IMG/VR virus record: IMGVR_UViG_3300036851_000283
Location: 1-58,751 of that record
DNA length: 58,751 nucleotides
Direction: 5' to 3' (one strand)
Source of the DNA: a virus
Lineage: Duplodnaviria > Caudoviricetes
In this document: in pieces, positions 4,442 through 54,569 of the stretch
Numbering within the stretch: the stretch's first letter is position 1
How the letters are laid out: every line of letters starts with the position of its first letter
Notes under the pieces: generated by a model
Told to the model about the DNA's origin: nothing
Database searches by the model: none
Seen by the model: only the letters and a program-made list of their open reading frames with translations
Translations under genes and position numbers: made by a program

Positions 4442-4696
4442 ATGAGCGAAGGGCTTACATTTGAACATTTGAAATCCATCACGTCGCAGCTAGGCGCCAC
4501 CGTGGACGACAAATACAGCCTTATTGTTTCATGGGCCACAAGCCGCTGGATTGATGATACCTCTCGGTTTTGCGAAACCTGCTATGATTGGTCGAGAAAG
4601 CGAAAGCTGAAATGGTTCAGGCGCAGAAACAAACAGCACATGAAGGAGGATGCCTCCGAAGTTAAATCCGCCCCCTCTTTCAGACCACTCCTATGA
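4442..4696 (+). CDS. Small hypothetical protein
   Basis: Abuts the upstream ORF and overlaps the portal start. Confidence 0.55.
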   Translation: MSEGLTFEHLKSITSQLGATVDDKYSLIVSWATSRWIDDTSRFCETCYDWSRKRKLKWFRRRNKQHMKEDASEVKSAPSFRPLL

Positions 4697-7026
4697 GCGA
4701 AAAACCCTCACGCTTTGCCACGCCTTCCGACTGCCTCAAGATCGTAAACGACATTGAGACTTCGATGTTGCCTCGCTCGGGCGACCGGGCGATTATCAAC
4801 GCTCAGTTTAACGGCGCCCGACCGTTCTCCGCAGCGGAGGAAAAAGAGCATCAGATTCAAGTCAACGCCAACTTCCTCGAAGGCTACAAGATTGCCCAAT
4901 CCGGCATTTTGCAGATGAACACGGCGCTCCTCTACAAAGAACGGTTCTTCAATGCCAAACTTCTCAAGGGGAAGCCTACCAAGCGTCAGGAATGGTCGGA
5001 AGCTCTGACCAACAACATTCATCGGCCACTCAAACGCGGCAAGTCGGGCAAGAAGTTCACCTACCTGATGCAGAATCGGAATGCCGCGCTCACCTTGCAC
5101 GGCATAGGCCCGCTCTGGTGGTCAAACGACTTCGACTGGATGCCAAAATTCGTTGCTCTGGACGACCTGCTTATCCCGACTGACACGCCCTTGGACTTCG
5201 AGGACGAGCTTGGATATTTCGGGGTGAATCAATGGCTGACGGCCTGGCAACTCTACAAGATGACCATGGGCGAGAAGGTCAAGCCGGGTTGGAACAAGGA
5301 ACTGGCGAAGCAGATTATCCAGTCCATGCTCGAATCCCAAAATTTCAGTCCCGACTATTGGGACAAGCCGGAAAAGTTGGAGGAGCTTTGGAAGCAGCGC
5401 AGCACGTTCCTCAACAGCGATGCCATCCCCAAGTGCAAGCTGACGACGATTTACTGTCAGGACGACAAGACGGGTCAATGGTGGCGCAAGATCATCGTCA
5501 GGGAGAATCAGGCGCTTCAAATCACCCACGTCTCAACCGACAAGTTTTTGTACGACGGGGAATCAGCTTTTGCGGAAGTCATTGACCGGGTTTTGCATGT
5601 GCAGTTTGGCGACGGCAGCGTGGTTGCGCCGTTCAAGTATCGGTCGGTTCGGGGATTGGGCGTCTTGCTTTACTCAGTCATCGAATTGATGAACCGCCTG
5701 CGTTGTCAGTTTACGCAGAGCGTGTTTACCGACTTGATGCCGCTGATTCGCATTGAGAATCCGACCGACCGCGACCGGCCAAAAATGTTGCAGATGCAAC
5801 CCTATGGCGTGGTTGACCATGGAGTTACGTTCGTCACCCAGCAGGAGCGTCACCAGCCCACCTATCAACTTGTCGAGGCTGCAATGAACGAGTTCCGGCA
5901 GTTGATGTCGGAATCAAGCTCGTCCTACGTTCAGGACATTGACACCGGCACGGGCAAGGAGATGACGTTGGGAGAGGCTCAGATTCGATTGCAGTCGGTG
6001 AACAAGATGGTGGCAAGCATGTTGAGTGCAGCGTACTTCCAAGAGGTCTTTCTTTACGAGGAAATCTTGCGCCGGTTCTTTAGCCGCACGAGTAAAGACC
6101 CGGAAGTTGTCCAGTTTCAAAGTCGTTGCAAGTCCGATGGCATCCCCGACGACATGATGAATTCGGAGTGCTGGCAGATTGATATTACGAAGGCTTTCGG
6201 TGCGGGCGATCAAAGTTTGGCCCAGCAGGAAATCGCGTTCCTATCCAACGTCGCTCCGCAGCTTGATCCCACGGCCCAGCGCAAGGTTCGCCGGATGTCT
6301 ATTTCGGTGATGACCCGAAATCCTGAGTTGGCGGATGATTTGGTGCCGCAAGAGCAGGTCATTGGCACGGAAGGGCGCAAGGCAGCGGAGAGCTTGTTTG
6401 GAACTCTCATGCAGGGCGCACAGGTCAACCCGATTGAGGGCATCGAGCAAACCGATTACATCGCGGCCATGATGCAAATGATGGGCAACGTCGTTGAACG
6501 CATCCAGACAACCGACCAGATGGGGACGATGCAGGAAGTGATGGGGCTGCAAACTGTCGCGGGCGACATCGAGCAACACCTTCAACTCATCTCCGACGAT
6601 CCGGCGCAGAAAGAGTTTGTGACCGAGGCTGGCAAGGAATTGGGCAAGCTGATGAACTTGGTCAAGGCGTTCGCGCAACGGTTGGAGGAAAAGGCTCAGG
6701 AAGGCCAGCAAGACCCGGAGAAAATGGCGAAGATTCAACTCGACCAGCAAGCTGCCGCGCAAAAGTTGGAAATCAACCAAGCTAACTTCCAGCAAAAGTT
6801 TGAACAGAAGCAGGCTTCATTTGAGCAAAAGATGGCGCAGAGCGAACAAAATCAAGCGATCAGTATTCAGCAGAGCTTGGACAGTGCCGCCGCCGAAATC
6901 GAAAGCATGAAGGCCAAGGCCATTGCTGAGATTCAGGCGTTACAGGCCAAGACTTCGGCGGAGATTCAGGCGACCAAAATCAAGGCCGAGAACCAGCCCG
7001 CCCCGGCCAAGGCAGAGAAGGCTTGA
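4693..7026 (+). CDS. Portal protein (podovirus/P22-like, long C-terminal coiled coil)
   Basis: 777 aa, helical, long Q/A/K-rich C-terminal barrel-like region; upstream of scaffold and capsid genes. Confidence 0.75.
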   Translation: MSEKPSRFATPSDCLKIVNDIETSMLPRSGDRAIINAQFNGARPFSAAEEKEHQIQVNANFLEGYKIAQSGILQMNTALLYKERFFNAKLLKGKPTKRQEWSEALTNNIHRPLKRGKSGKKFTYLMQNRNAALTLHGIGPLWWSNDFDWMPKFVALDDLLIPTDTPLDFEDELGYFGVNQWLTAWQLYKMTMGEKVKPGWNKELAKQIIQSMLESQNFSPDYWDKPEKLEELWKQRSTFLNSDAIPKCKLTTIYCQDDKTGQWWRKIIVRENQALQITHVSTDKFLYDGESAFAEVIDRVLHVQFGDGSVVAPFKYRSVRGLGVLLYSVIELMNRLRCQFTQSVFTDLMPLIRIENPTDRDRPKMLQMQPYGVVDHGVTFVTQQERHQPTYQLVEAAMNEFRQLMSESSSSYVQDIDTGTGKEMTLGEAQIRLQSVNKMVASMLSAAYFQEVFLYEEILRRFFSRTSKDPEVVQFQSRCKSDGIPDDMMNSECWQIDITKAFGAGDQSLAQQEIAFLSNVAPQLDPTAQRKVRRMSISVMTRNPELADDLVPQEQVIGTEGRKAAESLFGTLMQGAQVNPIEGIEQTDYIAAMMQMMGNVVERIQTTDQMGTMQEVMGLQTVAGDIEQHLQLISDDPAQKEFVTEAGKELGKLMNLVKAFAQRLEEKAQEGQQDPEKMAKIQLDQQAAAQKLEINQANFQQKFEQKQASFEQKMAQSEQNQAISIQQSLDSAAAEIESMKAKAIAEIQALQAKTSAEIQATKIKAENQPAPAKAEKA

Positions 7027-9307: not shown

Positions 9308-10474
9308 ATGTCCGCCTATATCACCTTGGGAAAAGCGGGCGATGTCGTTAGTCTCTGCCCAATCCTCCACGCCGACTACTGCGAAACCGGGAAGAAGTCC
9401 AAGCTGATTGTCGCTCAGGAATACGCGCAAATCCCGCAGGCATTGGATTACGTCGAAACCGTCATCTATCCCGGAAGCTGGCGGGATTTGGACGGCGCCA
9501 TCAAATTCGCCAAGCAAAATTTCGGAGTGTTTTACACGCCGCAAATGCACGGCGAGAACTTTCAGCCCAAGCGTCAGCATCCGTCGTTTCAACTGGATCA
9601 ATGGGCCAGGTGTGGGAGGCTCGACCAGTGGGGGAAGCTGCCTTTGGTTTTGCCGAGGACGAGCTATGTTGTTTCGGAAAATTTAATTCCATCAGCAGAT
9701 TTGAGCTACATCGTGTTCGCCGATAAAAGCGAAAGCTCACCTTTTGAACACGCTGACGATCTTGCCGAAGCTCTGGCGGTTCAATTTCCGTCGCATCGCA
9801 TCGTGAGGCTTTCAAATGTGCAAGTCCCCTACCTGCTGGACTTGCTGGCTATTTTTGATGCGGCGGATTTGATCGTCTCGGTTGACACCGTTCACTTGCA
9901 TCTGGCACAGGCGACGACTACGCCGCTGATTGCGCTGGTGGCGGATAAGCCTTCGCGGTGGCAAGGTGCCGCGTTCCACCCCAAGATGTCGCTGCACGTC
10001 CGCTACGGCGATTACCCACTCCGCAAGTCAGAGTTGTTGCATGTGGCAAATCGCTGTGTGAATAAACTGCGAACAGTCCAAATCAAGACCGTCGAAACAG
10101 GCAGGAAAAACGGCTACAATCTCTCTGTTCTCAAGGTTGGGGATAAGTTGTGGCAAACCTACCGCTGGCATCCCGCCGAATCGTGGCGAACCGAGTTGGT
10201 TCTTATTCGCGACGGCGTGGAGTATCCGATTACGCCGCCCGCGAAGTACGCGAAGCATTCATGGGAGGACGGAAGATTATTTTGGTACCGGGGCATTCCC
10301 CATATTTCGATGACCATCGCCAAGAGCCATGTTATCGGCCAGAAGTTCGACCCCTGCATTTGTGGCTACGGCAAGATCGGTCCTGAGGGCCACATTACCG
10401 ACTGGGTAGAGCCGGAACACAAAGACAATGTGTGGACAAAGCAGACGAAGAACATCGTATTTTTTGAAGCATGA
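9308..10474 (+). CDS. GT9 (heptosyltransferase)-like glycosyltransferase fused to the first part of a beta-propeller glycosidase/phosphorylase-like domain
   Basis: LGKAGDVV start; ADLIVSVDTVHLHLAQA (GT9 D-T/S-xx-HLA signature); later YNLSV, WEDGRLF and KNIVFF motifs. Confidence 0.7.
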   Translation: MSAYITLGKAGDVVSLCPILHADYCETGKKSKLIVAQEYAQIPQALDYVETVIYPGSWRDLDGAIKFAKQNFGVFYTPQMHGENFQPKRQHPSFQLDQWARCGRLDQWGKLPLVLPRTSYVVSENLIPSADLSYIVFADKSESSPFEHADDLAEALAVQFPSHRIVRLSNVQVPYLLDLLAIFDAADLIVSVDTVHLHLAQATTTPLIALVADKPSRWQGAAFHPKMSLHVRYGDYPLRKSELLHVANRCVNKLRTVQIKTVETGRKNGYNLSVLKVGDKLWQTYRWHPAESWRTELVLIRDGVEYPITPPAKYAKHSWEDGRLFWYRGIPHISMTIAKSHVIGQKFDPCICGYGKIGPEGHITDWVEPEHKDNVWTKQTKNIVFFEA

Positions 10475-10548
10475 AAAGAATAAGGCTTAACACTGGAAGA
10501 TACGCAGCTTCGCGCAAACTCCACGGAAAATTTTCAAGGACCGCGTGA
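10471..10548 (+). CDS. 25-aa basic mini-ORF (MKRIRLNTGRYAASRKLHGKFSRTA) between the two halves of a split gene
   Basis: ATGA overlap with the upstream stop and GTGA overlap with the downstream start. Confidence 0.5.
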   Translation: MKRIRLNTGRYAASRKLHGKFSRTA

Positions 10549-10997
10549 GCAAGCTCTATTGCATTTGGGAAATCTCGCCCGTTCACATTGTTTACGAAAT
10601 CAATGTTGGTAAGATCGTAAACGAGTTTAAGACGACGTGCCCTCCGTGTTCATTTGGTCAGCCAAGAGGCGGCACCCCACCACTCCCCTTTGGTGAAGGA
10701 AAGTCCATTCGATTCTTTCATGCGAACCGCAGGAATCCAAAGTCTGACGTGTGGTGGAATTACGCAATCGGATGTCTCGTCATGCAATCGCGCGCCCCAT
10801 TCCAAATCCTCCAAATCTCGAAACAGCCGATCCTCAGTGGCGACGAGCTTTATTATCCGGGGCATAAGTTCTGGAAGCCAAAAGTCCGAATTGTTTATGG
10901 CGCGGTGGAGGAAGGCGACGGATGGCTGCTGAGTTTAGGCGCCAACGATTCGGCATGTGAAATGGCTGGCGTTAAGAAGGAGGATTTATTTCTATGA
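10545..10997 (+). CDS. C-terminal part of the beta-propeller glycosidase/phosphorylase-like (GH130/GH43-like) domain
   Basis: KLYCIW..P.H, PRGGTPP, FFH, PFQILQIS..PIL and LSLGAND motifs continue the upstream domain. Confidence 0.6.
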   Translation: MSKLYCIWEISPVHIVYEINVGKIVNEFKTTCPPCSFGQPRGGTPPLPFGEGKSIRFFHANRRNPKSDVWWNYAIGCLVMQSRAPFQILQISKQPILSGDELYYPGHKFWKPKVRIVYGAVEEGDGWLLSLGANDSACEMAGVKKEDLFL

Positions 10998-11236
10998 AAA
11001 AAGCATCGGAATGGGCAAAAGACATGGGCAGTTTCCGTGGAGAAAATTGCGAAAATGTTTCAATGAAAGATCGCGTTGAGCAAATCCAACTCGACGCAAT
11101 GAAAGACGGTATGCGGATGGCATCAGAACTGGCGTATAAATACAATTGTGAAGTTTTTCCAGAACGTTTATCTGAAAATGGCGTAAAACGAGAAATCCTC
11201 TCTGTCGCCGAACAACTCACCGAGAAAGATTTATGA
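10994..11236 (+). CDS. Small hypothetical protein (possible paralog of 38467-38646)
   Basis: MKKASEW...VEQIQLDA. Confidence 0.6.
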   Translation: MKKASEWAKDMGSFRGENCENVSMKDRVEQIQLDAMKDGMRMASELAYKYNCEVFPERLSENGVKREILSVAEQLTEKDL

Positions 11237-11445
11237 ACGAAAAACATTTTCGCATCGAAAAACTCACCAACTTCACGCGCATCCGGCATAAAATTTATCC
11301 GTCACTGATGTTTCCGCCCAACGCCAGGATTCGCGCTGGTGATCTGGAATTGAAAGTGATTTCCACCAACGACAAAAAGGACACGATTACGTTTCAGCTT
11401 GTCGGCGTGTTCCTGCAACCCAAAGATGAGCCGGAGAAGAATTGA
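11233..11445 (+). CDS. Small hypothetical protein
   Basis: ATGA overlap. Confidence 0.55.
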   Translation: MNEKHFRIEKLTNFTRIRHKIYPSLMFPPNARIRAGDLELKVISTNDKKDTITFQLVGVFLQPKDEPEKN

Positions 11446-11446
11446 A

Positions 11447-12235
11447 ATGAAACCACTAACCACCTACCCCTACTCACCCGAACTCCTGACCTCGAAGGAT
11501 TTTTTCTGGAACTGCAAAAAATCGGACGAGATTGCGGCTTATTACGAGAAGTTGAAGCAACGGCAATTGGTCAATCCGACGGATGGGGATGAGAAACCAT
11601 TGCTGGCGATTTGCCAGAATGAAAAAAAGCTTTGCAGCTTCATACTGTCAACCGTTCCAACCATGCACGGATGGAGCAAGGAAACCAAATGTTGCGCCAT
11701 GGCTGCCTTGATTGTCGCGATGAAGCCGAGACTTATCGTGGAGATCGGTGTGTTTGCAGGTCGCAGCCTCCTGCCGATGGCAATGGCAATGAAACATACA
11801 AACAACCCAGGCAAGGTGATTGGAATTGATCCGTACTCCAGAGAGGAGAGCGTAAAAGGAGAGTACGGACTAAATTCGGAATGGTGGGGAAATCTCGACC
11901 ATAATCCGATGCACGACTTGTTTTTAGAATTCGTGAAACGATTCGGATTGGAGGCTCAAGTTCAACTTGTCAAAAAGCCAAGCGATGCGGTTCAGCCAAT
12001 GGAATACGATATGATACATGTGGATGGGAACCACAGTGAGCAAGCTCTAAGAGACGCGGAAAGGTTCGGGCCTAAATGCTCCTTGGGTGGAATCGCGGTA
12101 CTTGACGATTTGATGTGGATTGGCGGTGGGCCGTTACGTGCCATAGACGCGCTTGAGGACATGGGATTTGTCGAAGCGTTTAGAATCACCGGAGATGGAG
12201 AATGTTGGAACGTCATGCAAAGAGTCAGAGTATGA
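11447..12235 (+). CDS. Class I SAM-dependent methyltransferase (Methyltransf_24-like)
   Basis: IVEIGVFAGRS, GIDPY, DMIHVDGNHS and GGIAVLDD motifs. Confidence 0.85.
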   Translation: MKPLTTYPYSPELLTSKDFFWNCKKSDEIAAYYEKLKQRQLVNPTDGDEKPLLAICQNEKKLCSFILSTVPTMHGWSKETKCCAMAALIVAMKPRLIVEIGVFAGRSLLPMAMAMKHTNNPGKVIGIDPYSREESVKGEYGLNSEWWGNLDHNPMHDLFLEFVKRFGLEAQVQLVKKPSDAVQPMEYDMIHVDGNHSEQALRDAERFGPKCSLGGIAVLDDLMWIGGGPLRAIDALEDMGFVEAFRITGDGECWNVMQRVRV

Positions 12236-12930
12236 GGGTTAGGGATTTAACAGGACAGAAATTCGGAAGGCTTCTTGTCGTTTCTTTCTGTGGCTACACC
12301 GATCAAGGGAAAGCGAAATGGCAATGCCACTGCGATTGTGGCAACAATCCAGTTGTCATTGGCGCCAGCATGAAAAACGGAAGGCAGGTTTCTTGCGGTT
12401 TCCACAAGAACGAAATATGCGCCAAGCGCATGAAAGAGTACGCCACAAAACACGGACTCGCCTATACTGCGATTTACAGAGCTTGGAAGGGCCTGCTGAG
12501 TCGGTGTTACAACCCAAACTCAAATTGCTATCCCGATTACGGCGGCAGAGGAATAACCGCCTGCGCCGGGATTAGAACGAGCGTCGTAACACTCCTGAAT
12601 GCCGTGGGCCACCGTCCAGAAAGTCATCTGTCTTTAGATCGGAAGAATAACAGCCTTGGCTATTGGTGTGGCGAATGCGTTGAATGCGTCAAAAACAACA
12701 GACCCATGAATCTCCGGTGGGGCGACGACTTCGTTCAGTGTAGGAATCAGAGAACGAACCGCATCATTAAATACAACGGAGAATCTAAATGCGTTGCACA
12801 GTGGGCCGAAGATACTGGGATAACTCAGAACGCTATCAAGATGCGTCTTGACCGGCTTGGATGGTCCGTTAAGAGGACTCTCACAACTCCCCTCCGAATC
12901 ACCAAGGCAAACAACTCAAGTAACTATTGA
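12232..12930 (+). CDS. HNH-type homing endonuclease-like protein
   Basis: DLTGQKFGRL, WQCHCDCG, YGGRGI, SLDRKNN and QCRNQR motifs. Confidence 0.8.
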   Translation: MRVRDLTGQKFGRLLVVSFCGYTDQGKAKWQCHCDCGNNPVVIGASMKNGRQVSCGFHKNEICAKRMKEYATKHGLAYTAIYRAWKGLLSRCYNPNSNCYPDYGGRGITACAGIRTSVVTLLNAVGHRPESHLSLDRKNNSLGYWCGECVECVKNNRPMNLRWGDDFVQCRNQRTNRIIKYNGESKCVAQWAEDTGITQNAIKMRLDRLGWSVKRTLTTPLRITKANNSSNY

Positions 12931-12960: not shown

Positions 12961-14480
<1,520 letters not shown>

Positions 14481-14484
<4 letters not shown>

Positions 14485-16617: not shown

Positions 16618-17138
16618 CCCCCTCCGAACTTCTGAAAAAACATCTCAGTGATAAGTGTACGCACCATAATTATAGCGAAACTTACGACCGGCTCCTGTCC
16701 CCCCTCCGAGATTCCGCCACGGACATCTTGGAAATCGGGATTGAAAACGGCTGCTCACTCCGCGCATGGCGCGAGTATTTCCCGAACGCCCACATTTACG
16801 GACTGGAAAAAGAGGAGTCCAAACTTTTTCAATCCGAGCGCATCACGACCATTCGCTGCGACACGACCGAGCGGGATCGCATGATTGAACTGGCCGCAAC
16901 GCTCCCCTCCTTCGATTTCATCTGCGACGACGGCAGCCATGTTGTCACCGAACAAGTATGGGCCGTCGCCGTACTCTGGCCGCGTCTCAAGCCGGGTGGG
17001 ATTTACGTCGTCGAGGACATTTACCGACCGGAATATCTCAACCTGTTCAAATGCTTTCACAATGCTGAATTGCTGGACCTCCGAAAGCCAGGGGGCTGCG
17101 CGGATGATATGATGGCGGTGTTGAGGAAGGGGGTTTAG
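16614..17138 (+). CDS. Class I SAM-dependent (sugar O-)methyltransferase
   Basis: ILEIGIENGCSLRAW, FDFICDDGSH and LKPGGIYVVEDI motifs, resembling sugar O-methyltransferases. Confidence 0.85.
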   Translation: MTPSELLKKHLSDKCTHHNYSETYDRLLSPLRDSATDILEIGIENGCSLRAWREYFPNAHIYGLEKEESKLFQSERITTIRCDTTERDRMIELAATLPSFDFICDDGSHVVTEQVWAVAVLWPRLKPGGIYVVEDIYRPEYLNLFKCFHNAELLDLRKPGGCADDMMAVLRKGV

Positions 17139-17920
17139 CCCCGCCAATTAAGCGAACATCCCTTGCGATTATTTTCCTCCGCGTGCAAGGGCTGGCAGTT
17201 GGAGTAGTGGAATGCTTCCTTAACTTTCTCAGGATCGCTCAAATCAAAACTCGCCAGCGGAACCATGTGATCCACTTCCCAATAAGTGCCGTAATTATCC
17301 CAGTTCATCTCGGGGGTGAATTTTTCCTCCAACCACTCACGAAAGAATGCAGGAGTGCATCCAAGAATTTCGTAAGTCTTGTAGCGCATGGTGGGACTGT
17401 TGCGCTTGACCAATAGATATATTCGGGAGCGGAAGTTTTCGATTAGCTTGCGCTCGGGATTTTCAGCGCGACGAATTTTGCAGAGTTCGCGGCGGCGAGG
17501 CAGATATGCAATGCGTGCCTTGATGCGCTTGTCTTTATTCCTCAAGCTCCACAACGCAGACGACTTGGCTATTCGCGCTTTATTTTTGGCGTAATACTCT
17601 TTTGACCAATTAGGATTGGCGTCCCGCTGGGCCTTCTTTCTTGCGAGAACCCTATCCCGATGCTTGTAATATCCCTCAAGAGCCTTGATCCTGAAATACT
17701 CTCGCCTCTTTGCAGTATAAGCCCGGCTCCACTCCTTCTTGTGAGCCTTCTGCGCTGGTGTCAGGATTTGCTTTTTCTTTGGTCGCGATCCATTCGCCTT
17801 AGAAGCTCCGCCTTGGTGAATGGCCTCGGGTGCTTCCGACCCATTTCCCAATTCCGGTAAGTCCAAATTGAAATGCCCAACTTGTCCGCAACCTCCTTCT
17901 GATACCTCCTGCCTCTCCAT
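17135..17920 (-). CDS. HNH endonuclease with basic helical N-terminus (start uncertain)
   Basis: MNWDNYGTYWEVDHMVPL...FHYSNCQPLHAEENNRKG. Confidence 0.75.
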   Translation of the reverse strand: MERQEVSEGGCGQVGHFNLDLPELGNGSEAPEAIHQGGASKANGSRPKKKQILTPAQKAHKKEWSRAYTAKRREYFRIKALEGYYKHRDRVLARKKAQRDANPNWSKEYYAKNKARIAKSSALWSLRNKDKRIKARIAYLPRRRELCKIRRAENPERKLIENFRSRIYLLVKRNSPTMRYKTYEILGCTPAFFREWLEEKFTPEMNWDNYGTYWEVDHMVPLASFDLSDPEKVKEAFHYSNCQPLHAEENNRKGCSLNWRG

Positions 17921-17961
17921 AGTTTTAGCTGTTCCGAAAGTTTCACTTGTTCTAAGAACAA
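17761..17961 (-). CDS. XRE/Cro-family HTH regulator
   Basis: QKEVADKLGISIWTYRNWEMGRKHP; divergent from the capsid gene. Confidence 0.8.
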   Translation of the reverse strand: MFLEQVKLSEQLKLWRGRRYQKEVADKLGISIWTYRNWEMGRKHPRPFTKAELLRRMDRDQRKSKS

Positions 17962-18215
17962 TATCTAAGTCTTGATGGAAAATCAATCCGGGTTACTACT
18001 TAGTCAGAAGTCGCAATCAAGAGGCCAGAAATGGCTCGGCTTCCTCAGGCTGACTTAAACGCCCCGCAGCCGGGCCAACGCGAGTTGATTGGTGGCGCTT
18101 CACGCGCAAACGGCGACCTCGCCGGGACATTGCCAGTCCGAATTCCGAGAGGTAAAACAAAACCGAAAACTTTATCGCAGAATAATTACTTCTACGATTC
18201 AACATTAGAAAAACT

Positions 18216-19562: not shown

Positions 19563-19595
19563 AGAGGGCGGTGGCCAAAACCGCCGCCCTCTTTT
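19563..19595 (+). terminator. Intrinsic terminator after the capsid gene
   Basis: AGAGGGCGGTGG-ccaaaa-CCGCCGCCCTCT then a T run. Confidence 0.85.
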
Positions 19596-19902: not shown

Positions 19903-20316
19903 ATGGCAAGACCGTCTGAAACCGCTTGTACCCGCGCAACCTTCACCGACGACGTTGCGTGTCTAAAAAACTTCGACCTTCACCAGCGAAAGGCGCTCCT
20001 CGTCTATTTCGGCGTGTTGGAACTGGCTGCCCTTGGCGGCACCGACTACACGGCGGAACTGGACTCAGGGGGTGAATTGGCCCTGGCTGCCGCCTGCAAC
20101 GCCACGCTTGATCCTGACCAGAAGGAACTGGCGCATTTGCTCGTGGCCCAGAACAACGCCTCGGATGCCGGTGCGACTGTGCCAGCGACCAACGCGGCTC
20201 TCGCGTCTGCCATCGCGTGCCTCCAAAACCAGCCGGAGGGGATGCTGGACGCCATGTGGCTGCTCGTGGAATGTCAGCTTGGCCGTCATGCGGTTTATCC
20301 GCAGGTGGATTTGTAA
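19903..20316 (+). CDS. Cys-containing helical virion protein (putative decoration/fibre base)
   Basis: Recurring ACL motifs; located in the capsid operon. Confidence 0.55.
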   Translation: MARPSETACTRATFTDDVACLKNFDLHQRKALLVYFGVLELAALGGTDYTAELDSGGELALAAACNATLDPDQKELAHLLVAQNNASDAGATVPATNAALASAIACLQNQPEGMLDAMWLLVECQLGRHAVYPQVDL

Positions 20317-20322
20317 AATATC

Positions 20323-20577
20323 ATGCCATGTCCTGACATCTCAGCAATTCAATCCAATGCGTGTCTCAGTGAAATTGGCCGCGCCACCGATGAGATTGAA
20401 CTGCTGCAATTGACGGCGCAATCGGCGCTGGCTTGGGCGGAGGCCAATAATCCCGGTGTGGACTATTCATTGGATGAGATTCAAGATCGGGCATGCGCCA
20501 GCGGAATCGGCTGGGAACAGAGTGAAATAAATCTGCTTCGAGTCATCGGGCAAAATCTCTGCAATCAAATTTCTTAA
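20323..20577 (+). CDS. Protein made of two tandem copies of the Cys-bracketed module
   Basis: IQSNACLSEIG..EIELLQL and IQDRACASGIGWEQSEINLLRVIGQNLC. Confidence 0.7.
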   Translation: MPCPDISAIQSNACLSEIGRATDEIELLQLTAQSALAWAEANNPGVDYSLDEIQDRACASGIGWEQSEINLLRVIGQNLCNQIS

Positions 20578-20580
20578 ATC

Positions 20581-21102
20581 ATGGCCTGTGATCTATCCAC
20601 AATAAAATCGGCAGCTTGCCTGAGCGGCATCGGAAAGGAGCAGTCGAAGATCAAGCTCCTGCAATTGATCGCGCAACTCACTTGTGAGGCGTCAGAAGGC
20701 GGCGGAAGTGGCGACAGCCTGCCCTCTGGCGTGATTCTCATGTGGAGCGGCACGATTGCCACCATCCCGTCAGGGTGGACGCTCTGCGACGGCACGGCTG
20801 GAACTCCCGATCTTCGCAACCGATTTGTGGTCTGCGCCAATGCCGACACAGTTGGAGTTCCCACGTCAACGATCTTGGGTCCGCCGCTGTCGTTTAGCGG
20901 TAGTGTTAGCCATACCCACAATCTTACTGACCCGGGTCACGATCACCTTTATCCCGAAGAATTAAGCGCTAATGTCCCGGGCACTACGGGCATAGTTGGA
21001 TATGACGCCGGCGCTGTAGCCGCAAACACAACCGGAATCACGGTTGATATGACCAGTAATGTTCCGCCGTTTTTTGCGCTCGCCTACATAATGAAAACCT
21101 GA
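20581..21102 (+). CDS. Fibre protein: Cys-bracketed module plus tail-collar-like domain
   Basis: PSGVILMWSG...IPSGWTLCDG..GTPDLRNRFV and NVPPFFALAYIMK. Confidence 0.8.
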   Translation: MACDLSTIKSAACLSGIGKEQSKIKLLQLIAQLTCEASEGGGSGDSLPSGVILMWSGTIATIPSGWTLCDGTAGTPDLRNRFVVCANADTVGVPTSTILGPPLSFSGSVSHTHNLTDPGHDHLYPEELSANVPGTTGIVGYDAGAVAANTTGITVDMTSNVPPFFALAYIMKT

Positions 21103-21105
21103 CCT

Positions 21106-21984
21106 ATGGCCTGCGATCTGACAACCATTCAAGCCGCTGCCTGCCTCTCTGGTATCGGTAAGGAACAAAGCAAAATAAAGCTGCTCCAGTTGATTGCCCA
21201 GTTGACGTGTGAGGCGGGCGATGGCACCAGCAGCGCCGTATGGGGAGAAATCACCGGCACGCTGTCGAATCAAACTGATTTGCAGGCGGCGTTGGACGCC
21301 TTGGAGATGGATATTGCATTGGCCTATGAAAAACCTATCAACGCCGCCTTTGAGCGGGAAGAATTCCTTGGCGGAGCAGGTACCGGCGCGATCGCTGGGT
21401 CACATGGCTGGGGAACCAATTCCGTGGCGCTGTCGAACCAGGCCGCCATTGAGAATGCTCATCCAGGCACGGTGGATGTTGCCTCTGGCGCGACCGCAAC
21501 CAATTTTGGGACCTACCAACTTATCGGCTCGCCATCTCTTGGCACTGGGGTTGTCCAGTGGGGGGCGATAACAAATTGGCGGCATCGCTTTGTCTTCAAG
21601 TCGCTCTCTACCACGGCGATTTTTGTTTATGTCGGGCTGGTGGTCAATAACGTGGCCACCACTGCCACCACTCCGACCGGGCTATTCCTGAGATTTAACA
21701 GTGCGGCCAACGCCAATTTCCGATTCGTGGCCTTCAATGGGGCGACCGAAACAGACTTGGACTCGGGAGTGGTGGGCGACACTGAATGGCACACTCTCAT
21801 CATTTCCTCTACAACCATCGGCCAGATAATTTTTCAGTTGGACAGCGGAGCGCCACAGACCATAGGCACAAATGTTACTGGCACTGCCTTGCGTGTGGCC
21901 TTCCAGATTGGCACTGGCGAAAACGTGGCCAAGACTGTTCGTTGTGATTTGTGGGATTTTCTAATGACCGGGTTGGCGCGATAG
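21106..21984 (+). CDS. Fibre protein: Cys-bracketed module, short stalk and lectin-like beta domain
   Basis: WGEITGTLSNQTDLQAALD stalk motif; DTEWHTL in a beta-rich C-terminus. Confidence 0.7.
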   Translation: MACDLTTIQAAACLSGIGKEQSKIKLLQLIAQLTCEAGDGTSSAVWGEITGTLSNQTDLQAALDALEMDIALAYEKPINAAFEREEFLGGAGTGAIAGSHGWGTNSVALSNQAAIENAHPGTVDVASGATATNFGTYQLIGSPSLGTGVVQWGAITNWRHRFVFKSLSTTAIFVYVGLVVNNVATTATTPTGLFLRFNSAANANFRFVAFNGATETDLDSGVVGDTEWHTLIISSTTIGQIIFQLDSGAPQTIGTNVTGTALRVAFQIGTGENVAKTVRCDLWDFLMTGLAR

Positions 21985-22044: not shown

Positions 22045-22338
22045 ATGCTAATGGGAGACATGACACCGGAGGAATTAGGGAGGGGGGTCCGGTTGCTGGT
22101 GACAGTCCTTGGCATTGTCGCGGCAATCGCGCTGGCGGTCATTGGATTCATCAAGTTCTTTGTCACGCGCTACGAGTACAACAAGCTCCTGAAACTGGTC
22201 GAGGAGATTCAAGCCGCGCAAAATGAATTAAAACAGAATCAGGGCAGACTCACGCCGGAGTCTGAGGCGCAGATGATAAAGATTCTGCAAAAAATAGACG
22301 AATTTTTCAGTGAAAAACAACGCCGGAAAAATGGCTAG
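22045..22338 (+). CDS. Holin-like or inner-spanin-like single-TM protein
   Basis: One hydrophobic helix followed by a coiled coil. Confidence 0.5.
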   Translation: MLMGDMTPEELGRGVRLLVTVLGIVAAIALAVIGFIKFFVTRYEYNKLLKLVEEIQAAQNELKQNQGRLTPESEAQMIKILQKIDEFFSEKQRRKNG

Positions 22339-22738
22339 AGTTCTTCATATTGAAGATGACAAGGAATGCCGGGAAATTGTCTCATGCAAGCTCAAAGGGC
22401 ATCTCCAGATTGATGAGGCAAACACATTGGCGGACGGAATCGTGATGGCTCACCGGATTCAATATGATGGCATTCTCCTTGATCCAGGTCTGGTTGACGC
22501 CGACCGGGAGACGGCCCTGAATCGGATCAAGGCGGCGGTCGAGGGCGTTGCGATCATCATCCTGACTGGCTACGACGACGAGGCGTGGACGCGCCGCCAG
22601 ATTTCAAGTAACGCCAGCGGAGTACTTCTCAAGGGGCGGGACGACCGGGAAGCCCTGCCGTTTGCCAGCCAGATCATCCGCGCAATCTCGGTGCATCGGG
22701 CGTGCGCCGCCATTGACGCGGCGCAGTTGCAGGGGTAG
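22331..22738 (+). CDS. Single-domain response regulator (receiver domain)
   Basis: VLHIEDD, YDGILLD (phosphoacceptor Asp), IIILTG and LLKG: all canonical receiver residues present. Confidence 0.9.
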   Translation: MARVLHIEDDKECREIVSCKLKGHLQIDEANTLADGIVMAHRIQYDGILLDPGLVDADRETALNRIKAAVEGVAIIILTGYDDEAWTRRQISSNASGVLLKGRDDREALPFASQIIRAISVHRACAAIDAAQLQG

Positions 22739-22766
22739 GTTTTGGGCGTTAATCATTAACAAAACT

Positions 22767-23210
22767 ATGAAAAAACTCAAAATTGTCAGCGGCGGTTTCT
22801 GCATAGCCTTCACACTGTACTGTGCAGTGACTTACATCACTGGGTGCACCACACCGCAGGTTGTCACCAACCCCGACGGCTCAAGCTCCACCAACCATGT
22901 CGTTGATCCTCGCGTAACAACCGGGCTGGCGGTTGGCAGTGCGGTTAATACCGCGACTGCGCCGGTTAATCCAGCCTTCCCATTTGTCGAGGTTGGATTG
23001 AGTGCGGTCGCCGCTGGATTCGGCTGGTTCGCCAAGCGCAAGAACGACAAGGCGGCGGCGAATGAGTTGCTGTTGAAAACCGTCGTGCAGGCTATTGACG
23101 CACTGGACGACCAGAAGGTTAAGGACGCGATTAAGACTCACGCGGTCAACGTGGGAACGGAAAGCGCACTGAACACTGTCGTCCAAAAGATCGGAAGTGG
23201 AATCATCTAA
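22767..23210 (+). CDS. Lipoprotein with an additional TM helix (possibly lysis-associated)
   Basis: Signal peptide with ITGC lipobox; TM segment FVEVGLSAVAAGFGWF. Confidence 0.65.
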   Translation: MKKLKIVSGGFCIAFTLYCAVTYITGCTTPQVVTNPDGSSSTNHVVDPRVTTGLAVGSAVNTATAPVNPAFPFVEVGLSAVAAGFGWFAKRKNDKAAANELLLKTVVQAIDALDDQKVKDAIKTHAVNVGTESALNTVVQKIGSGII

Positions 23211-23234: not shown

Positions 23235-23265
23235 AAGCCCTCCTTTAATCGGGGAGGGCTTTTTG
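23235..23265 (+). terminator. Intrinsic terminator
   Basis: AAGCCCTCCT-ttaatc-GGGGAGGGCTT then a T run, at a convergence point. Confidence 0.85.
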
Positions 23266-41139: not shown

Positions 41140-41157
41140 TTGACACCACTCTATCAA
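41140..41157. promoter_or_regulatory. Palindrome TTGACA-ccactc-TATCAA
   Basis: One mismatch; contains the terminase TGA stop on the minus strand. Confidence 0.65.
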
Positions 41158-43040
41158 ACTTCCGCAAGCTGTCGAGATTTTCTTTGCGCCTCCAGCTTCT
41201 CCGCCTCCTTGGCGAACCAGTCGGAGGAGGATTTGGAGGGGAGGTTGGGCGCGGCGATCTTATCAATCTGGAATCCGCGCCTGCGAGCGCCCTCCACTCC
41301 AACAACGAACATATCCGCAAGGTCGGGACTGACTCCGGTTCGCTCCCGAAGCTCATCTTTTGGCTCAACCTGCTTCTTGTCTCCACGAACTTTTCGCCAT
41401 TCTCGCGGCTGCGCGTCCAATACAATCTCCATGGTCAGGCCGCGCATCTGGTCGGACTCAATAACGTAGTGGGCGGACATCCATAGCTCCGTTACGAAGT
41501 TCAGAAATGCCTCTTTAGAAGTTTGGAGCCTTCTCAGATTGGTAATCTTGTCCACGACAAATAAATCAGGGCCAGCCGGTCTTTCGGTCGGGCTTCCGCC
41601 AAATTCCAAACTGTTCACCTTGTCGCTCCAAATCCGGGCCAGACTGATTGCCAGAGTGCCGCGACCGTCGAAGAAAAAGTTTTCGGGCGGAACTCCTGCC
41701 GACTCCATCTTTTGCTTGCAGAAAAAGGCAATTTGATCTTCGGGCAACAAGTCTTTTCGGATGGTGACTGGTATCAGCCACATCTCCCGGAATTTTAGGC
41801 GGGTTTTTCCATCTGTGCATTTACCAAACTCAAACCAACCGACCGGACATCGGTCAGAACCAGCGCCACCATACGAGGCGTCCAATGCACCAATACTGAT
41901 TGTGTCGCCTTCCCACTGAACGTCGTCGAAGGCGTGATAAATGTCGCAAAGCTCCTTGGTGATGATCTTGAAAGCGTCCAAGCCGAACTTGAAAACGCCG
42001 CGACCGTTAGACCAGTAGGATTCAGAGCCGGGAGTGTACTTCGCGAGCTTATGTGGGCCTGCCAGTTGCGACCAACGGGGGCGGTCAACCGGGAAGGCGC
42101 TGTTTGGACTGTCCAAACCGTCTAGGTTTACGCATACGCATTGAACCGGATGCTTGGGATGCTTTTTACACTTCCAAACCTGAGTCTTTCCAGATTCAAC
42201 CGTGGCCTCCGGGATCGAACCCCATCCGTTTTCAGGCTCAGACACAATATCCAGCGGGTTATCTCGAACCGAGGGGTTGGTATTCCCAATAAAGCAGCAG
42301 CGATAAAATCGCCGAGACTTTCCGCGCTCAATCGGATCGGGATGATCTTTAGGATAGACTCCACCCATTATGCCTGAGCCGTCTCCATTGTTACTAATGA
42401 GATTGTCCTGAGCCTCAAGAATCGAAAGATGCATGAATTGGAACTCGTCGCCGATACACCAGACGCGACGATTCTTGCGCCCGGAGTACGCGCCCATGCC
42501 GACAAAAACACCGGAGGAAGTTTTACAGGCGATGCCCAAAATTGAGTTCCGAATATCACGCGCCTTTTCCTCATCAACGTCGGTGAAAGTGATGACAGTT
42601 TTGCTGTCAATCGGATGTCCTGGAAACCACTCGTATCTTTCCGATGCGCGCTTCCACATCATCGTAGTTTCGCCGTAAATACGGTTCTTCAAACCATCGA
42701 GCGTGGTTGAACTCATCATCACCGAAGTATCTTCCGGCCAGCACGACCAATCCATGAGAGCGATTCTAGCGACCGTGCCAGACTTCCAAGCCGAGGCGGG
42801 ACCAACGAGAGACGTGAAGGTGTTTTTGATGACGTTTTCAAGAATCAAGTCAGTCCACCACGTCTGCGAATCCTCCGGCCAGAGTAGCGCCCAATAATTT
42901 TTGAAGTGCTGGTGAAGCCCGAGGCCGCGCACTTTTCCGTCTTTTGATGGGAAGTAACCTCCGTAGCGAATCATCTCCCTTTCTATTTGCGCGTCATCAA
43001 GATCATCTGGCCATTTGATTTCGTAGCGGAGTGTCGGCAT
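41154..43040 (-). CDS. terL: Terminase large subunit
   Basis: Walker A GPASAWKS, Walker B CIGDE, GN coupling motif, nuclease LDASYGG..DRC and SPDLAD. Confidence 0.9.
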   Translation of the reverse strand: MPTLRYEIKWPDDLDDAQIEREMIRYGGYFPSKDGKVRGLGLHQHFKNYWALLWPEDSQTWWTDLILENVIKNTFTSLVGPASAWKSGTVARIALMDWSCWPEDTSVMMSSTTLDGLKNRIYGETTMMWKRASERYEWFPGHPIDSKTVITFTDVDEEKARDIRNSILGIACKTSSGVFVGMGAYSGRKNRRVWCIGDEFQFMHLSILEAQDNLISNNGDGSGIMGGVYPKDHPDPIERGKSRRFYRCCFIGNTNPSVRDNPLDIVSEPENGWGSIPEATVESGKTQVWKCKKHPKHPVQCVCVNLDGLDSPNSAFPVDRPRWSQLAGPHKLAKYTPGSESYWSNGRGVFKFGLDAFKIITKELCDIYHAFDDVQWEGDTISIGALDASYGGAGSDRCPVGWFEFGKCTDGKTRLKFREMWLIPVTIRKDLLPEDQIAFFCKQKMESAGVPPENFFFDGRGTLAISLARIWSDKVNSLEFGGSPTERPAGPDLFVVDKITNLRRLQTSKEAFLNFVTELWMSAHYVIESDQMRGLTMEIVLDAQPREWRKVRGDKKQVEPKDELRERTGVSPDLADMFVVGVEGARRRGFQIDKIAAPNLPSKSSSDWFAKEAEKLEAQRKSRQLAEV

Positions 43041-43995: not shown

Positions 43996-46554
43996 GTGGC
44001 CGACACCGCTCCATTTAGGCCCCTGCAAGTTTATGACTCACTGAGCATCCTTCCTGACGGTATGTCGTCGGCGGTGAGTCCCTTGTTACTCGAAAAAACC
44101 CAAGCCGCCTATCTTTCCAACACGACCGTCCGCGATGGCTTCGCGACCTGCCGCCCGCCGTTCACCAAAAACCTGACGATCAACTATCCCTCGCCTGCGG
44201 TGCAGACGGCGATTGAAGAAGGACTTTATCAGGGCGCAACTTATTACAAGCCTGACGCGGGACCGGAGTCGTTGATCGCGCAAATCGGCGGCTTTCTCTA
44301 CCAGTTTACGGTGGTTGGTGATGTCGTTACCGTTCGCGATATCAGCGTTCCCGGCGATCCCAATCCGGCGACGGCGACTCAGGCATGGCTTTGGCAGGCC
44401 GAGAATTTTGTCATCGTTCAAGACGGCATCAGTCTGCCGATTTTCTTCGATGGGGCGACGAGTCGCAGAAGCTATGGACCAACTCAGGTTCTTGGGGCGA
44501 CAGTTGGCGGTGAAACCATCCCTCCATTCGGACAGTCCATACCAGTAGCGGTCACTTCTTACACCGGCCCATTCAACGTGCCGGTTTTAATCGGTGGATT
44601 TTACTGGCAGCCAATTGAGAACTCGGCTGGTTATCTGGTCAATGCGGAAAGCCTTTACGACGTTTCTGGAACGGCCATCCCAGTTGATGCCGAAGTCACG
44701 GCCAAGCCATCAATCGCGTTTGTGTTGTCATCCCCCATGAATTTAGTGGGGCCGTTTCAGTACTCGACGACGATCATCACGATTAACATCACCGCGCCGT
44801 CAACTGTGGCGATCAACTCCAAGATAATTTTGTTCAACCGGATTTGGAACATCAATTCGGCGGCGGGAAACACCGTGACGATTCGTCCGATCAAAAATCA
44901 GGCGGCGGGGACCTACTCGCCACTTCCGGCTGGCTATCAAGTTCAGGTTTCTGGCAGCACGGCGCCAAATGTGGTTTACGGACTCGTTACCGTTGCGGCG
45001 GTAGCTCCGGCAATCGGCGGCATGATTCAATTACGGCTCAACAATGTTTATGCGGGAACGCCGGGGCAGATAGTTTACATCGGCACATCAGGGCAGTATC
45101 GGATTACCGCCGTTCCGCCACCACCGCCGGGCGTCGGAACAATTGAGATGATTAACATCAACGCGCCGAATGGTAGTACAGTTCCCGAAACAGTTCCAGC
45201 GGCAGACATCATCTCTGTTCCCGAACTCCCTGCCGGTCGCATGGGCGTTTACGGTCATAGCCAAAACTGGGTGGCTTTGGTTGACGGCTTGAGCTTCATC
45301 CCTAGCGATATTTCAGGCAGTGCATCGGGAACTCCCGCCTATCAATATCGAGATGCCGTTCTCAAGACAACCAACATCACCTTCGGCAGTGGAAACTTCC
45401 GCATTCCTTCGGCTGGGGATTTCATCACAGCCATGTTTTTCACAACCACACTGGATGAGAGCATGGGGCAAGGGCCGCTGATGATTGGGACCGAGCGATA
45501 TATTTTCAGCGTCACCGCTCCGATTGACCCGTCGAATTTGGCGGCGATAATCGCCAAAGGAAGCCCGATCCTCACCTACGCCCTGATCGGTCGCGGCCCG
45601 CTCGCGCAAAACTCAACCATCAGCGTCAACAGCGATGTTCAATTCCGCTCCACGGTCGGACTGGGTTCTCTCATCATCGCCCGTCAGCAATTCACGTCGT
45701 CGTTGAACGGCAACACTCCAATCTCCGAGGAAATGGTTCGCGTTCTCAACAAGGACGACAAGCAACTGCTGCCCTACAGCAGCGCCATCAATTTCGACAA
45801 CCGGGTTATTTTCACGGCGTCACCTCAAGCATCCTCGCAAGGCGTGTTTCACACGAGCCTGGTTGTAATGAATCTCGACGGCTTGAGCAGCCTGCGTGGG
45901 AAAGAGCCAGCCTGCTACGACGGTCAATGGACGGGGTTAAACGTATTACAATTAACTACCGGCATGTTCAATGGCACGAGCCGGGCATTTGCCTTCACCT
46001 TCAATGTTTCGCTGTCGAAAATCGAACTTTACGAGTTGCTGCCATCCGATGCTCAAATTCTCGACGAGAACGACCAGCCGACGCTGGCAAATTTTTACGA
46101 CAACGGCAGCGTTCCGATTACGTGGTCAATTGAAACGGCCTCGCTGTTCAACGAGGATGTGAAGCCCAAGGATGTGCTGGTCCAACTTAACGGCGGCGAG
46201 TTCGCAGTTGATGAATTGGTGGGCACAGTGCGGTTTGAAATTTTTTACAAGCCCGACCAATACGGGGCTTACGGGGCGCAATCGTGCTGGGTGCCGTGGC
46301 ATCGGTTTTCTCTGTGCGCGGCGGCGGGGTCGAAGCCGTTGTATTTTCCGAGACTGGGATTGCCTGAGCCAGACAGCCTGACGTGCGTTGGCGCGATTGA
46401 TACTCCGGCGAGGAATGGCTACAGCTTTCAGGTGCGTTTCGTGATTACAGGGCGTTGCCGCCTGTTGCGCCTGCGCGTTGGCGCGGTGACTCAGCCGACA
46501 CCGAAATTCGAGAAGCCGACTTGCGACGTGATTGAGACGGTGGTGATTGGTTAA
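43996..46554 (+). CDS. Tail nozzle/hub protein (podovirus)
   Basis: 852 aa beta-rich; PISEEM..VL, WTG, IETA and C-terminal FQVRFVITG motifs like nozzle proteins. Confidence 0.65.
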   Translation: MADTAPFRPLQVYDSLSILPDGMSSAVSPLLLEKTQAAYLSNTTVRDGFATCRPPFTKNLTINYPSPAVQTAIEEGLYQGATYYKPDAGPESLIAQIGGFLYQFTVVGDVVTVRDISVPGDPNPATATQAWLWQAENFVIVQDGISLPIFFDGATSRRSYGPTQVLGATVGGETIPPFGQSIPVAVTSYTGPFNVPVLIGGFYWQPIENSAGYLVNAESLYDVSGTAIPVDAEVTAKPSIAFVLSSPMNLVGPFQYSTTIITINITAPSTVAINSKIILFNRIWNINSAAGNTVTIRPIKNQAAGTYSPLPAGYQVQVSGSTAPNVVYGLVTVAAVAPAIGGMIQLRLNNVYAGTPGQIVYIGTSGQYRITAVPPPPPGVGTIEMININAPNGSTVPETVPAADIISVPELPAGRMGVYGHSQNWVALVDGLSFIPSDISGSASGTPAYQYRDAVLKTTNITFGSGNFRIPSAGDFITAMFFTTTLDESMGQGPLMIGTERYIFSVTAPIDPSNLAAIIAKGSPILTYALIGRGPLAQNSTISVNSDVQFRSTVGLGSLIIARQQFTSSLNGNTPISEEMVRVLNKDDKQLLPYSSAINFDNRVIFTASPQASSQGVFHTSLVVMNLDGLSSLRGKEPACYDGQWTGLNVLQLTTGMFNGTSRAFAFTFNVSLSKIELYELLPSDAQILDENDQPTLANFYDNGSVPITWSIETASLFNEDVKPKDVLVQLNGGEFAVDELVGTVRFEIFYKPDQYGAYGAQSCWVPWHRFSLCAAAGSKPLYFPRLGLPEPDSLTCVGAIDTPARNGYSFQVRFVITGRCRLLRLRVGAVTQPTPKFEKPTCDVIETVVIG

Positions 46555-50872: not shown

Positions 50873-50876
50873 AGAT

Positions 50877-51092
50877 ATGGATAAAGAAATTTTCACCGGA
50901 GAACAAAAAGTAATTGAGAGATATGGCGACTTGATTCCATGCGGTCAATGCGGCGCAGTGAGGGTGGATGAAAAAGGAAACTTCGCTGGCCTGGTTGAAG
51001 ATTTCGGAGGGACGTTGTTTGAGGAAACCGTGAAGTATGTCGGCGAAGATGGTAAGATAAAACTCGGTAAAGACTGGACGACCGGGGAATGA
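50877..51092 (+). CDS. Small hypothetical protein
   Basis: 71 aa with CxxC. Confidence 0.55.
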   Translation: MDKEIFTGEQKVIERYGDLIPCGQCGAVRVDEKGNFAGLVEDFGGTLFEETVKYVGEDGKIKLGKDWTTGE

Positions 51093-51096
51093 AATT

Positions 51097-52899: not shown

Positions 52900-52942
52900 G
52901 CCCCATTGCCACCGCAAAGGAAAAGGAGTATAGCAGATAGCA

Positions 52943-54007: not shown

Positions 54008-54011
54008 ATTT

Positions 54012-54566: not shown

Positions 54567-54569
54567 TTT

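Follow-up and report, generated by a model that had tools for sequence, protein, structure and literature searches.

Two putative fibre proteins encoded behind the major capsid gene of IMG/VR virus record IMGVR_UViG_3300036851_000283 share a 37-residue, cysteine-containing N-terminal module, and we propose that this module is probably the conserved part by which short, exchangeable fibres are docked on the surface of the virion. A docking role as such we likewise consider fairly probable. The analysis covered the whole stretch (hereafter, the window), a complete virus record of 58,751 bp with direct terminal repeats, its first and last 127 bases being identical. The module, a helix-loop-helix, occupies the extreme N-terminus and is followed by a glycine-rich linker in about half of its payload-bearing members. 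Past the linker lie payloads of binding type, namely tail-collar, SO2946-like, leucine-rich repeat (LRR), TIG, and short foldon-like ends. A tandem two-module protein, open reading frame (ORF) 4, and an ORF3-like protein that is probably a diverged tandem are always encoded beside the fibres and the capsid gene. Coordinates are collected in Table 1.

Module copies in the window

ORF5 (20581–21102, 173 amino acids [aa]) and ORF6 (21106–21984, 292 aa) are identical at 36 of 43 N-terminal residues (E = 5e-22), and the shared 37-aa module described in the original prediction was confirmed codon by codon, with 34 of 37 residues the same. At the DNA level, 33 of 111 nucleotides differ: 11 of the 37 codons are identical, 23 carry synonymous differences only, and three are non-synonymous. 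Because so many codons differ synonymously only (23/37), the module peptide is under strong selective constraint. Recent gene conversion as the source of the 34/37 identity was ruled out by these synonymous-only differences. When a 40-aa module was searched against the whole record, exactly four copies were recovered, one each in ORF5 and ORF6 and a pair in ORF4 (E = 1.5e-6 and 1.7e-6); a six-frame hidden Markov model (HMM) scan of the window found no fifth (next hit, E = 0.3). The module matched no Pfam or PHROG family and no solved relative. Judged by sequence, it defines a family without a name in Pfam or PHROGs.

A family of modules with different payloads

The original prediction had suggested that an HMM search with the module would list payloads fused to it in other phages, and such a search did so, with 247 clusters and at least 27 payload groups. 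The profile, built from 16 module sequences, was run against 1.84 billion cluster representatives; the 247 clusters were found at E ≤ 1e-3, and 108 of them at ≤ 1e-10. The best 150 of the 247 were inspected, and two long, repetitive proteins with no module at i-Evalue < 0.01 (P0180 and P0183) were dropped, leaving 148. The first module begins at residue 1–5 in 146 of these (exceptions, P0215 and P0241). One module with a payload is the most frequent architecture (82 of the 148), followed by two modules only (37, about 70–84 aa), two modules with a payload (20), one module only (5), three modules with a payload (2), and five modules (2).

Payloads of at least 30 aa (n = 101) were sorted by single-linkage BLAST into 27 groups, a rough count for a reason given below. 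A GGG stretch lies within 20 aa of the module in 51 of these 101 proteins, and Pfam searches of 68 payload proteins recovered LRR domains in four and a TIG domain in one. Many family payloads are about 50 residues long and presumably foldon-like, in the manner of the fibritin foldon; some members consist of the module, a glycine linker, and such a foldon-like end of about 50 aa.

Gene order and payload swapping among relatives

The surroundings of the capsid gene were read in nine related genomes (L049, L052, and L056–L062), with L051 and L053 as partial relatives of L052. Relative to the window, their capsid proteins are 38–53% identical and their ORF3 proteins 31–44% identical. The gene order is the same in nine of nine: after the capsid gene come a small acidic protein, an ORF3-like one, a protein of two or more modules, and one to three genes for a module with a payload. 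At least two fibre proteins per phage with the same N-terminal unit also occur in L049, L056, L058, L060, and L062. In place of the window's collar protein, L049 encodes a 193-aa protein with an unrelated payload, and L052 a 271-aa protein whose payload differs again. In L049, the second fibre gene (10587–11324) seems to continue in another frame, where it overlaps a 147-aa ORF (11176–11619), and may reflect a frameshift or an assembly error.

Six relatives (L057–L062) gave no match to the window-type profile at E ≤ 0.01 and carry, at the same position, a second module subtype of the form 'C...CFxCL...LLCQI'. The two subtypes are homologous (hhalign probability 93.9%, E = 1.6e-7), and all three of their cysteines align. 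The collar payload is found on both (P0002–P0011 versus P0012, P0018, P0030, P0036, and P0089), as is a 'YRALLTQ...VLENTLGGT' payload (P0145, P0173, P0200, and P0208 versus L062). Since the same payloads occur on both subtypes, the anchor diverges with the phage backbone and the payloads cross backbones; a backbone-tracking module with mobile payloads is, on sequence grounds, the signature of an attachment domain. The earlier proposal of an interchangeable N-terminal unit with different payloads is upheld by the family size, the 27 payload groups, and the payload swaps across relatives.

Other searches added little. Module queries of the contig sets gave only one further contig, and a metagenome scan gave five loci, of which one was an already known contig and one (L054) not a member; a search of the genome contig set gave none. 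A single-protein capsid query of viral contigs found no match, and a query with P0003 returned 44 collar-domain loci, none spanning the module start (the furthest two begin at residues 25 and 30).

Module-only proteins

ORF4 had been predicted to consist of two divergent module copies alone, and both the module search and the HMM scan agree. Its AlphaFold2 (AF2) model, built from 38 sequences, has a predicted local distance difference test (pLDDT) score of 91.1 and four helices (residues 6–16, 24–42, 50–60, and 68–82). Foldseek returned no PDB match to this model at E ≤ 10, and the best result of a VIA-wide search (Z = 5.2, 6kzj) is within the noise for helical models, so no fold was assigned. 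Neither ORF3 nor ORF4 matched any of 50,697 GenBank phage records by tblastn at E ≤ 1.

ORF3 is a conserved core protein whose orthologues lie directly downstream in seven of seven loci (L056–L062; E = 1e-16 to 1e-38) and also in L049, L052, and L051. It had been described as loosely related to the module; this holds for orthologues (E = 8e-11 to 3e-7) and fails for the window's own ORF3 (E = 0.22). An HMM of the second, 'CF'-type subtype, run on a set of 11 sequences, matched ORF3 orthologues at 8e-11 (L058), 2e-8 (L051), and 3e-7 (L052), and it matches twice, at an N-terminal 'C...CF' and a C-terminal 'C...LLC'. In the reverse search, the ORF3 profile found module-only ORFs at E = 0.0015 and 0.004. 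The invariant ORF3 cysteines (9, 20, 106, and 124) fit the pattern of a two-module protein. With moderate confidence, we take ORF3 to be an expanded two-module protein that has probably diverged and contains an insert.

In L061, the ORF3-like domain forms the C-terminal third of a 362-aa ORF (11699–12787, its start called mechanically), the first 237 residues of which resemble a repetitive, beta-rich part of an adhesin. ORF3-like proteins may therefore carry payloads at the opposite end, as in L061. Single-module ORFs of 37–38 aa were also seen (L051, 687–800; L053, 4822–4935; L058, 12064–12180). These free-standing modules have the tandem protein on one side and the fibre genes on the other, and P0195, P0224, P0227, P0233, and P0237 are similar.

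Payloads of ORF5 and ORF6

The original prediction assigned a tail-collar-like domain to ORF5 and a stalk with a lectin-like domain to ORF6; the first two assignments stand, on PHROG and solved-structure matches and on a motif, respectively, and for the domain called lectin-like the match obtained was to SO2946-like domains. Residues 34–173 of ORF5 match phrog_5795 (E = 5.5e-17) and phrog_1800, a 'tail collar fiber protein' (E = 2.9e-15), and the payload matches the solved tail fibre 9qgo (E = 4.5e-11) as well as 6ov6 and 9nxk, entries with three chains each. Against PF07484 it scores 21.4 bits, below the 24-bit gathering cut-off, with profile positions 1–22 of 57 matched. Among its 4852 homologues, several are named 'microcystin-dependent protein' by their source, and close ones carry precomputed PF07484 annotations. 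The two histidines of the HxH motif (H111 and H113) are invariant in 30 aligned homologues. By these matches the ORF5 payload is tail-collar-like.

The stalk motif of ORF6, 'WGEITGTLSNQTDLQAAL', is shared with tail protein/peptidase genes of Cellulophaga phages, and it also occurs in phage tail-repeat and fibritin-type proteins that carry PF12789 and PF07921. The C-terminal ~200 aa probably resemble SO2946-like C-terminal domains: an Atlas search aligned them to PF22237 (SO2946-like_C) with a template modelling (TM) score of 0.87 over 203 residues, enough for a name by the tool's own standard, both sides being predicted models, and the matched PF22237 domains are the ends of pectate-lyase-like viral proteins. 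ORF6 matched no Pfam family at E ≤ 0.1, nor PF22237 by sequence, and its payload had no PDB hit by sequence or with a two-sequence profile. Among 48 hits there was no full-length homologue; the distal domain is shared only with P0266, another module-bearing protein, at 38% identity.

The capsid gene

The claim that these genes directly follow a capsid gene is borne out by AF2 and Foldseek, which show an HK97 fold for the upstream product. The AF2 model (45 sequences; pLDDT 72.3, pTM 0.69) gave 261 Foldseek matches in the PDB at E ≤ 1e-3; among the matches listed, all are phage or satellite capsids with a probability of 1.00. Podophage capsids are the best structural matches, led by Pan3 (9vye, E = 7.6e-10) and N4 (9e99, TMq 0.47). 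An Atlas feature search is weakly concordant, placing the protein with a cluster that has PF13252 in 18% of its members. On this modelled structure, the protein is an HK97-fold capsid protein. Its sequence had no match in Pfam, PHROGs, the PDB, or the same GenBank phage records by tblastn. Capsid homologues form 137 clusters at E ≤ 1e-5, many on contigs of 52–58 kb. Six cysteines (C75, C79, C108, C372, C421, and C439) do not vary, and C5 is retained in at least 90% of the 45 sequences, a pattern that may indicate a thiol or metal network in the shell. The protein begins 'MADAC' and ends 'VCEA', which recall the module's 'MAC...TCEA'.

A position beside the capsid gene also invites a role inside the particle. 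The helix-loop-helix could be a coat-binding signal that loads payloads into the capsid, with ORF3 and ORF4 scaffold-like, comparable to the P22 scaffolding helix-turn-helix or encapsulin cargo peptides. A small helix-loop-helix on a flexible linker would suit that function, and Pfam, PHROG, and NCBIfam scans identified no scaffolding protein elsewhere in the genome. The C-terminal helix-turn-helix of P22 scaffolding protein is itself a helical hairpin of about 40 aa that binds an HK97-fold coat protein; it differs in acting within the procapsid and then leaving, and in having neither cysteines nor adhesin payloads. The payloads of the present family, however, are adhesin and fibre-tip types (collar, SO2946-like, LRR, TIG, and a fibritin-like stalk) that are not known as internal proteins, and we regard internal loading as highly improbable.

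Cysteine pattern and proposed docking unit

Cysteines were counted over cluster representatives at 50% identity. All three module cysteines (positions 3, 13, and 35) are present in 83 of 89 single modules, and the middle one in 205 of 217 modules overall. Among 55 two-module proteins, 42 have both the first cysteine of copy 1 and the last of copy 2, 12 have neither, and one is discordant; for the last cysteine of copy 1 and the first of copy 2, nine proteins have both and 46 neither, with no discordant case. The covariation of first and last cysteines suggests a staple, for which a disulfide and a metal site fit equally well. The second subtype often has a CxxC motif, which would suit zinc. 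From the up-down-up-down course of the helices, we infer that the bundle has the first and last cysteines at one end and the middle pair at the other, an arrangement that suggests two staples in the modelled tandem protein and an unpaired middle cysteine in each single-module fibre.

We propose that the module makes up one half of a docking unit of four helices. Two modules would pack as one such unit, in the way that the confident ORF4 model shows; one end of it would be closed by the first and last cysteines and the other by the two near-invariant middle cysteines, through a disulfide or a metal. Since two modules would form one four-helix unit, the single modules of the fibres would need a partner module, which ORF4 and/or ORF3 would supply, thereby tying the fibre to the particle. 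Payloads of the collar and foldon-like types are expected to trimerise, and each fibre would for that reason present three anchors.

The same data could be read more simply, with the module as a cysteine-stapled mini-domain that oligomerises or stabilises the fibres and has no docking role, ORF3 and ORF4 having an unrelated function. The cysteine covariation and the confident four-helix model do show a self-contained fold. Such a cap would leave unexplained why every relative keeps module-only proteins next to its fibres, why the module tracks the phage backbone while payloads swap, and why 34 of 37 residues are identical within one genome despite saturated synonymous change, and we think it very unlikely.

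Several points weigh against docking by paired modules. The ORF3 protein of the window has no significant match to the module, and hhalign against the tandem family gave a probability of 8%. The cysteine counts are taken over representatives and are not independent events, and the proposed pairing derives from helix topology. Shared linker or stalk motifs have probably chained the largest payload group (43 members) together, for which reason 27 is only a rough number of payload groups. Finally, all genomes with gene context belong to one phage clade, so the position beside the capsid gene is one evolutionary observation, not nine.

Location of the proposed docking partner

Where the partner modules would sit on the particle is a separate question. 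We give the capsid shell nearly an even chance of carrying the hub, a portal-proximal position in the neck or tail a lesser and still substantial one, and any other site a small share.

The original prediction placed the modules on the head: they would co-assemble on the capsid shell, ORF4 and one fibre module forming a disulfide-locked pseudo-trimer. We regard this version as a real possibility that falls somewhat short of even. Both in the window and in nine of nine relatives, the cassette comes directly after the HK97-fold capsid gene, and its genes are co-oriented and tightly packed. The minimal members, with module, glycine linker, and foldon-like end, recall a trimeric clamp for the three-fold sites of a capsid and are less like a tail receptor-binding protein. 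The capsid is rich in invariant cysteines, and its 'VCEA' end is like the module's 'TCEA'. Neck adaptors, however, also lie after the coat gene in other phages, among them P22 gene 4, HK97 gp6, and SPP1 gp15. A trimerising payload brings three modules per fibre, which misfits a unit of two (ORF4) plus one without extra assumptions, and a disulfide cannot be told from a metal site here. In favour of the head, the layout is that of the solved P68 head fibre, as described in the excerpt of PMC6795507.

A more specific form of head mounting amounts to plug-and-play display, in which the fibre module pairs with a shell-bound hub of ORF3 and ORF4 and is locked covalently through the middle cysteines under oxidising conditions; the adhesins would be head-mounted, and the capsid might take part in a thiol network. 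We consider this combination decidedly unlikely.

The fibres could instead be plugged into the neck or tail, with ORF3 and ORF4 as portal-proximal adaptors and the module acting in the manner of T7 gp17-type anchors or of the docking peptide of secondary receptor-binding proteins in Klebsiella podophages. Small helical proteins encoded right after the coat gene are typically adaptors, both payload types are known from the tips of tail fibres and tailspikes, and the best structural matches of the capsid are those of podophages. Moreover, a conserved N-terminal anchor with swapped distal domains is the rule for tail receptor-binding proteins, as far as the excerpts of PMC6872550, PMC12692247, and PMC13352976 describe them.

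The distance to the tail genes bears on this reading. The module genes had been described as far from the tail genes, a statement that stands on weak PHROG tail hits only (47542–49578 and 51097–52899). The tail-like annotations, likewise weak (47542–55421), lie about 26 kb from the module genes on the circular map, and the proteins of that region lack the module. The ORF4 model matched no solved adaptor in the Foldseek and VIA searches, although this is weak evidence, and fibres of 80–170 aa on a floppy glycine tether would be unusually small for tail fibres. Overall, attachment at the neck or tail appears rather unlikely to us.

Other features of the window

Most large ORFs of the window had no match in Pfam, PHROG, or NCBIfam. 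Recognisable are a recombination and replication block (exonuclease, RecT, and DnaB) and several glycosyltransferases and methyltransferases. ORF2, which had no family match in the three databases, was matched by tblastn in L057, L056, and L060, and small acidic counterparts of it were read in L049, L052, and L057–L062.

Table 1. Positions of the module cassette and of conserved neighbouring features in the window.
Feature	Position	Strand	Remarks
GT9-type glycosyltransferase	9308–10474		Conserved in nine relatives
150-aa protein	10545–10997		Weak mannobiose-phosphorylase-like hits; conserved in nine relatives
Methyltransferase	11399–12235		Conserved in nine relatives
Major capsid protein, 441 aa	18216–19541	+	HK97 fold; AF2 model and Foldseek
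Terminator-like hairpin between capsid gene and ORF2	19563–19592	+	12-bp stem, 9 G-C pairs, T-rich tail; consensus match only
ORF2, small acidic protein, 96 aa	19608–19898	+	Kept after capsid gene in relatives
ORF3, conserved core protein, 137 aa	19903–20316	+	Cys 9, 20, 106, and 124 tandem-like; Cys 65 extra
ORF4, tandem two-module protein without payload, 84 aa	20323–20577	+	Copy 1, 20323–20442; copy 2, 20455–20574
Module of ORF5, aa 1–37	20581–20691	+	Cys 3, 13, and 35; BLAST and HMM
ORF5 linker (SEGGGSGD, 8 residues) and tail-collar-like domain	20692–21102	+	HxH motif
Module of ORF6, aa 1–37	21106–21216	+	BLAST and HMM
ORF6 stalk motif WGEITGTLSNQTDLQAALD	21241–21297	+	Motif matches in phage tail proteins
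ORF6 distal beta-rich domain, aa 85–292	21358–21984	+	Atlas structure search

The module genes and the capsid gene run in one direction, and no Shine-Dalgarno-like signal was found upstream of any gene from the capsid to ORF6. Besides the hairpin between the capsid gene and ORF2, a second strong terminator-like hairpin (23235–23261, 11 pairs) follows ORF 22662–23210. Together the two hairpins bracket ORF2–ORF6 and three downstream genes as one unit, and they may attenuate expression of that unit relative to the capsid gene; terminator-like sites in the region (5 versus 5.8 in shuffles) are not above expectation. Just past the fibre genes lies a stand-alone response-regulator receiver domain (22310–22738; PF00072, 35.1 bits, over the cut-off).

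Two HNH/endonuclease VII-like genes interrupt the structural region (12202–12930 and 17135–17986), the second of them on the minus strand directly upstream of the capsid gene. Between them, a 507-aa protein (12961–14484) combines DUF6745 with a stretch like MSCRAMM Ser-Asp repeat models, a likeness that is probably compositional. Three genes kept in all nine relatives (L049, L052, and L056–L062) lie between a 777-aa protein (4693–7026) and the capsid gene; these are the GT9-type enzyme, the 150-aa protein, and the methyltransferase of Table 1, which may modify virion proteins or DNA.

The 777-aa protein has a long Q/A/K-rich C-terminal stretch, is conserved in L056–L058 and L061, and is possibly the portal, which is a guess; it matched no solved structure by sequence or with a four-sequence profile. 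A portal or terminase was sought among the large ORFs, which gave no Pfam, PHROG, or NCBIfam hit to either, and PDB sequence searches with the proteins at 4693–7026, 43996–46554, and 41154–43040 returned no hits. A giant ORF (55446–58751) leaves the window at its 3' end and another open frame (2–2023) enters at the 5' end, the two being separated by the 127-bp terminal repeat. Residues 93–344 of the giant ORF match PHROGs 30335 and 11358 and, more weakly, PHROG 2206 (N4-type virion RNA polymerase).

Comparison with known systems

The T7 gp17-type N-terminal anchor belongs to a receptor-binding protein built as an anchor plus a payload. The same principle holds for the receptor-binding proteins of Klebsiella podophages (KP32, KP34, and K11), in which, according to the excerpts of PMC6872550, PMC13352976, and PMC12692247, a conserved N-terminal part is common to several fibres, distal domains are exchanged, and a short conserved peptide docks a second fibre. 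The present anchor differs in being only 37 aa long, a cysteine-containing helix-loop-helix with a glycine linker. It is accompanied by module-only proteins and occurs in one, two, three, or five copies, and its genes follow the capsid gene and are not among the tail genes. Neither the module nor ORF4 matched a known anchor in sequence or fold (Pfam, PHROG, Foldseek, VIA, and GenBank phages).

Likenesses to fibritin and to head fibres are also apparent. T4 fibritin (wac) combines a virion anchor at its N-terminus with a repetitive stalk and a foldon at the C-terminus, a layout resembling that proposed for the module family, and the PF07921 (Fibritin_C) domains of proteins with the ORF6 stalk motif provide a further link. 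The anchors are unrelated in sequence, however, and fibritin is attached to the neck and encoded by a single gene without exchangeable paralogues. In phi29, the head-fibre gene follows the capsid gene. The gp14 head fibre of P68 comprises a domain at its N-terminus that binds the capsid (residues 1–55), a stalk, and a domain for receptor binding that is related to tail proteins; in the excerpt of PMC6795507 the capsid-binding domain has three beta sheets and a helix, unlike the helix-loop-helix of the module. Neither P68 nor phi29 (gp8.5) has module-only partners or several fibres on one anchor, as is the case here.

Significance

Conserved N-terminal anchors with exchangeable distal domains account for the way in which tailed phages switch hosts, and current phage engineering is based on them. 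The principle of an anchor plus a payload is known already; what looks new here is a plug-in anchor with its own module-only partners. At 37 residues and a glycine tether, the module would be the smallest such anchor among those compared. The clade that carries it is abundant and uncultivated, with 137 capsid clusters and genomes of about 55–58 kb. If its docking partner is identified, the pair could provide a compact tag and socket for mounting proteins on phage particles, and the partner would also tell whether head-mounted adhesins are commoner in environmental phages than cultured examples suggest.

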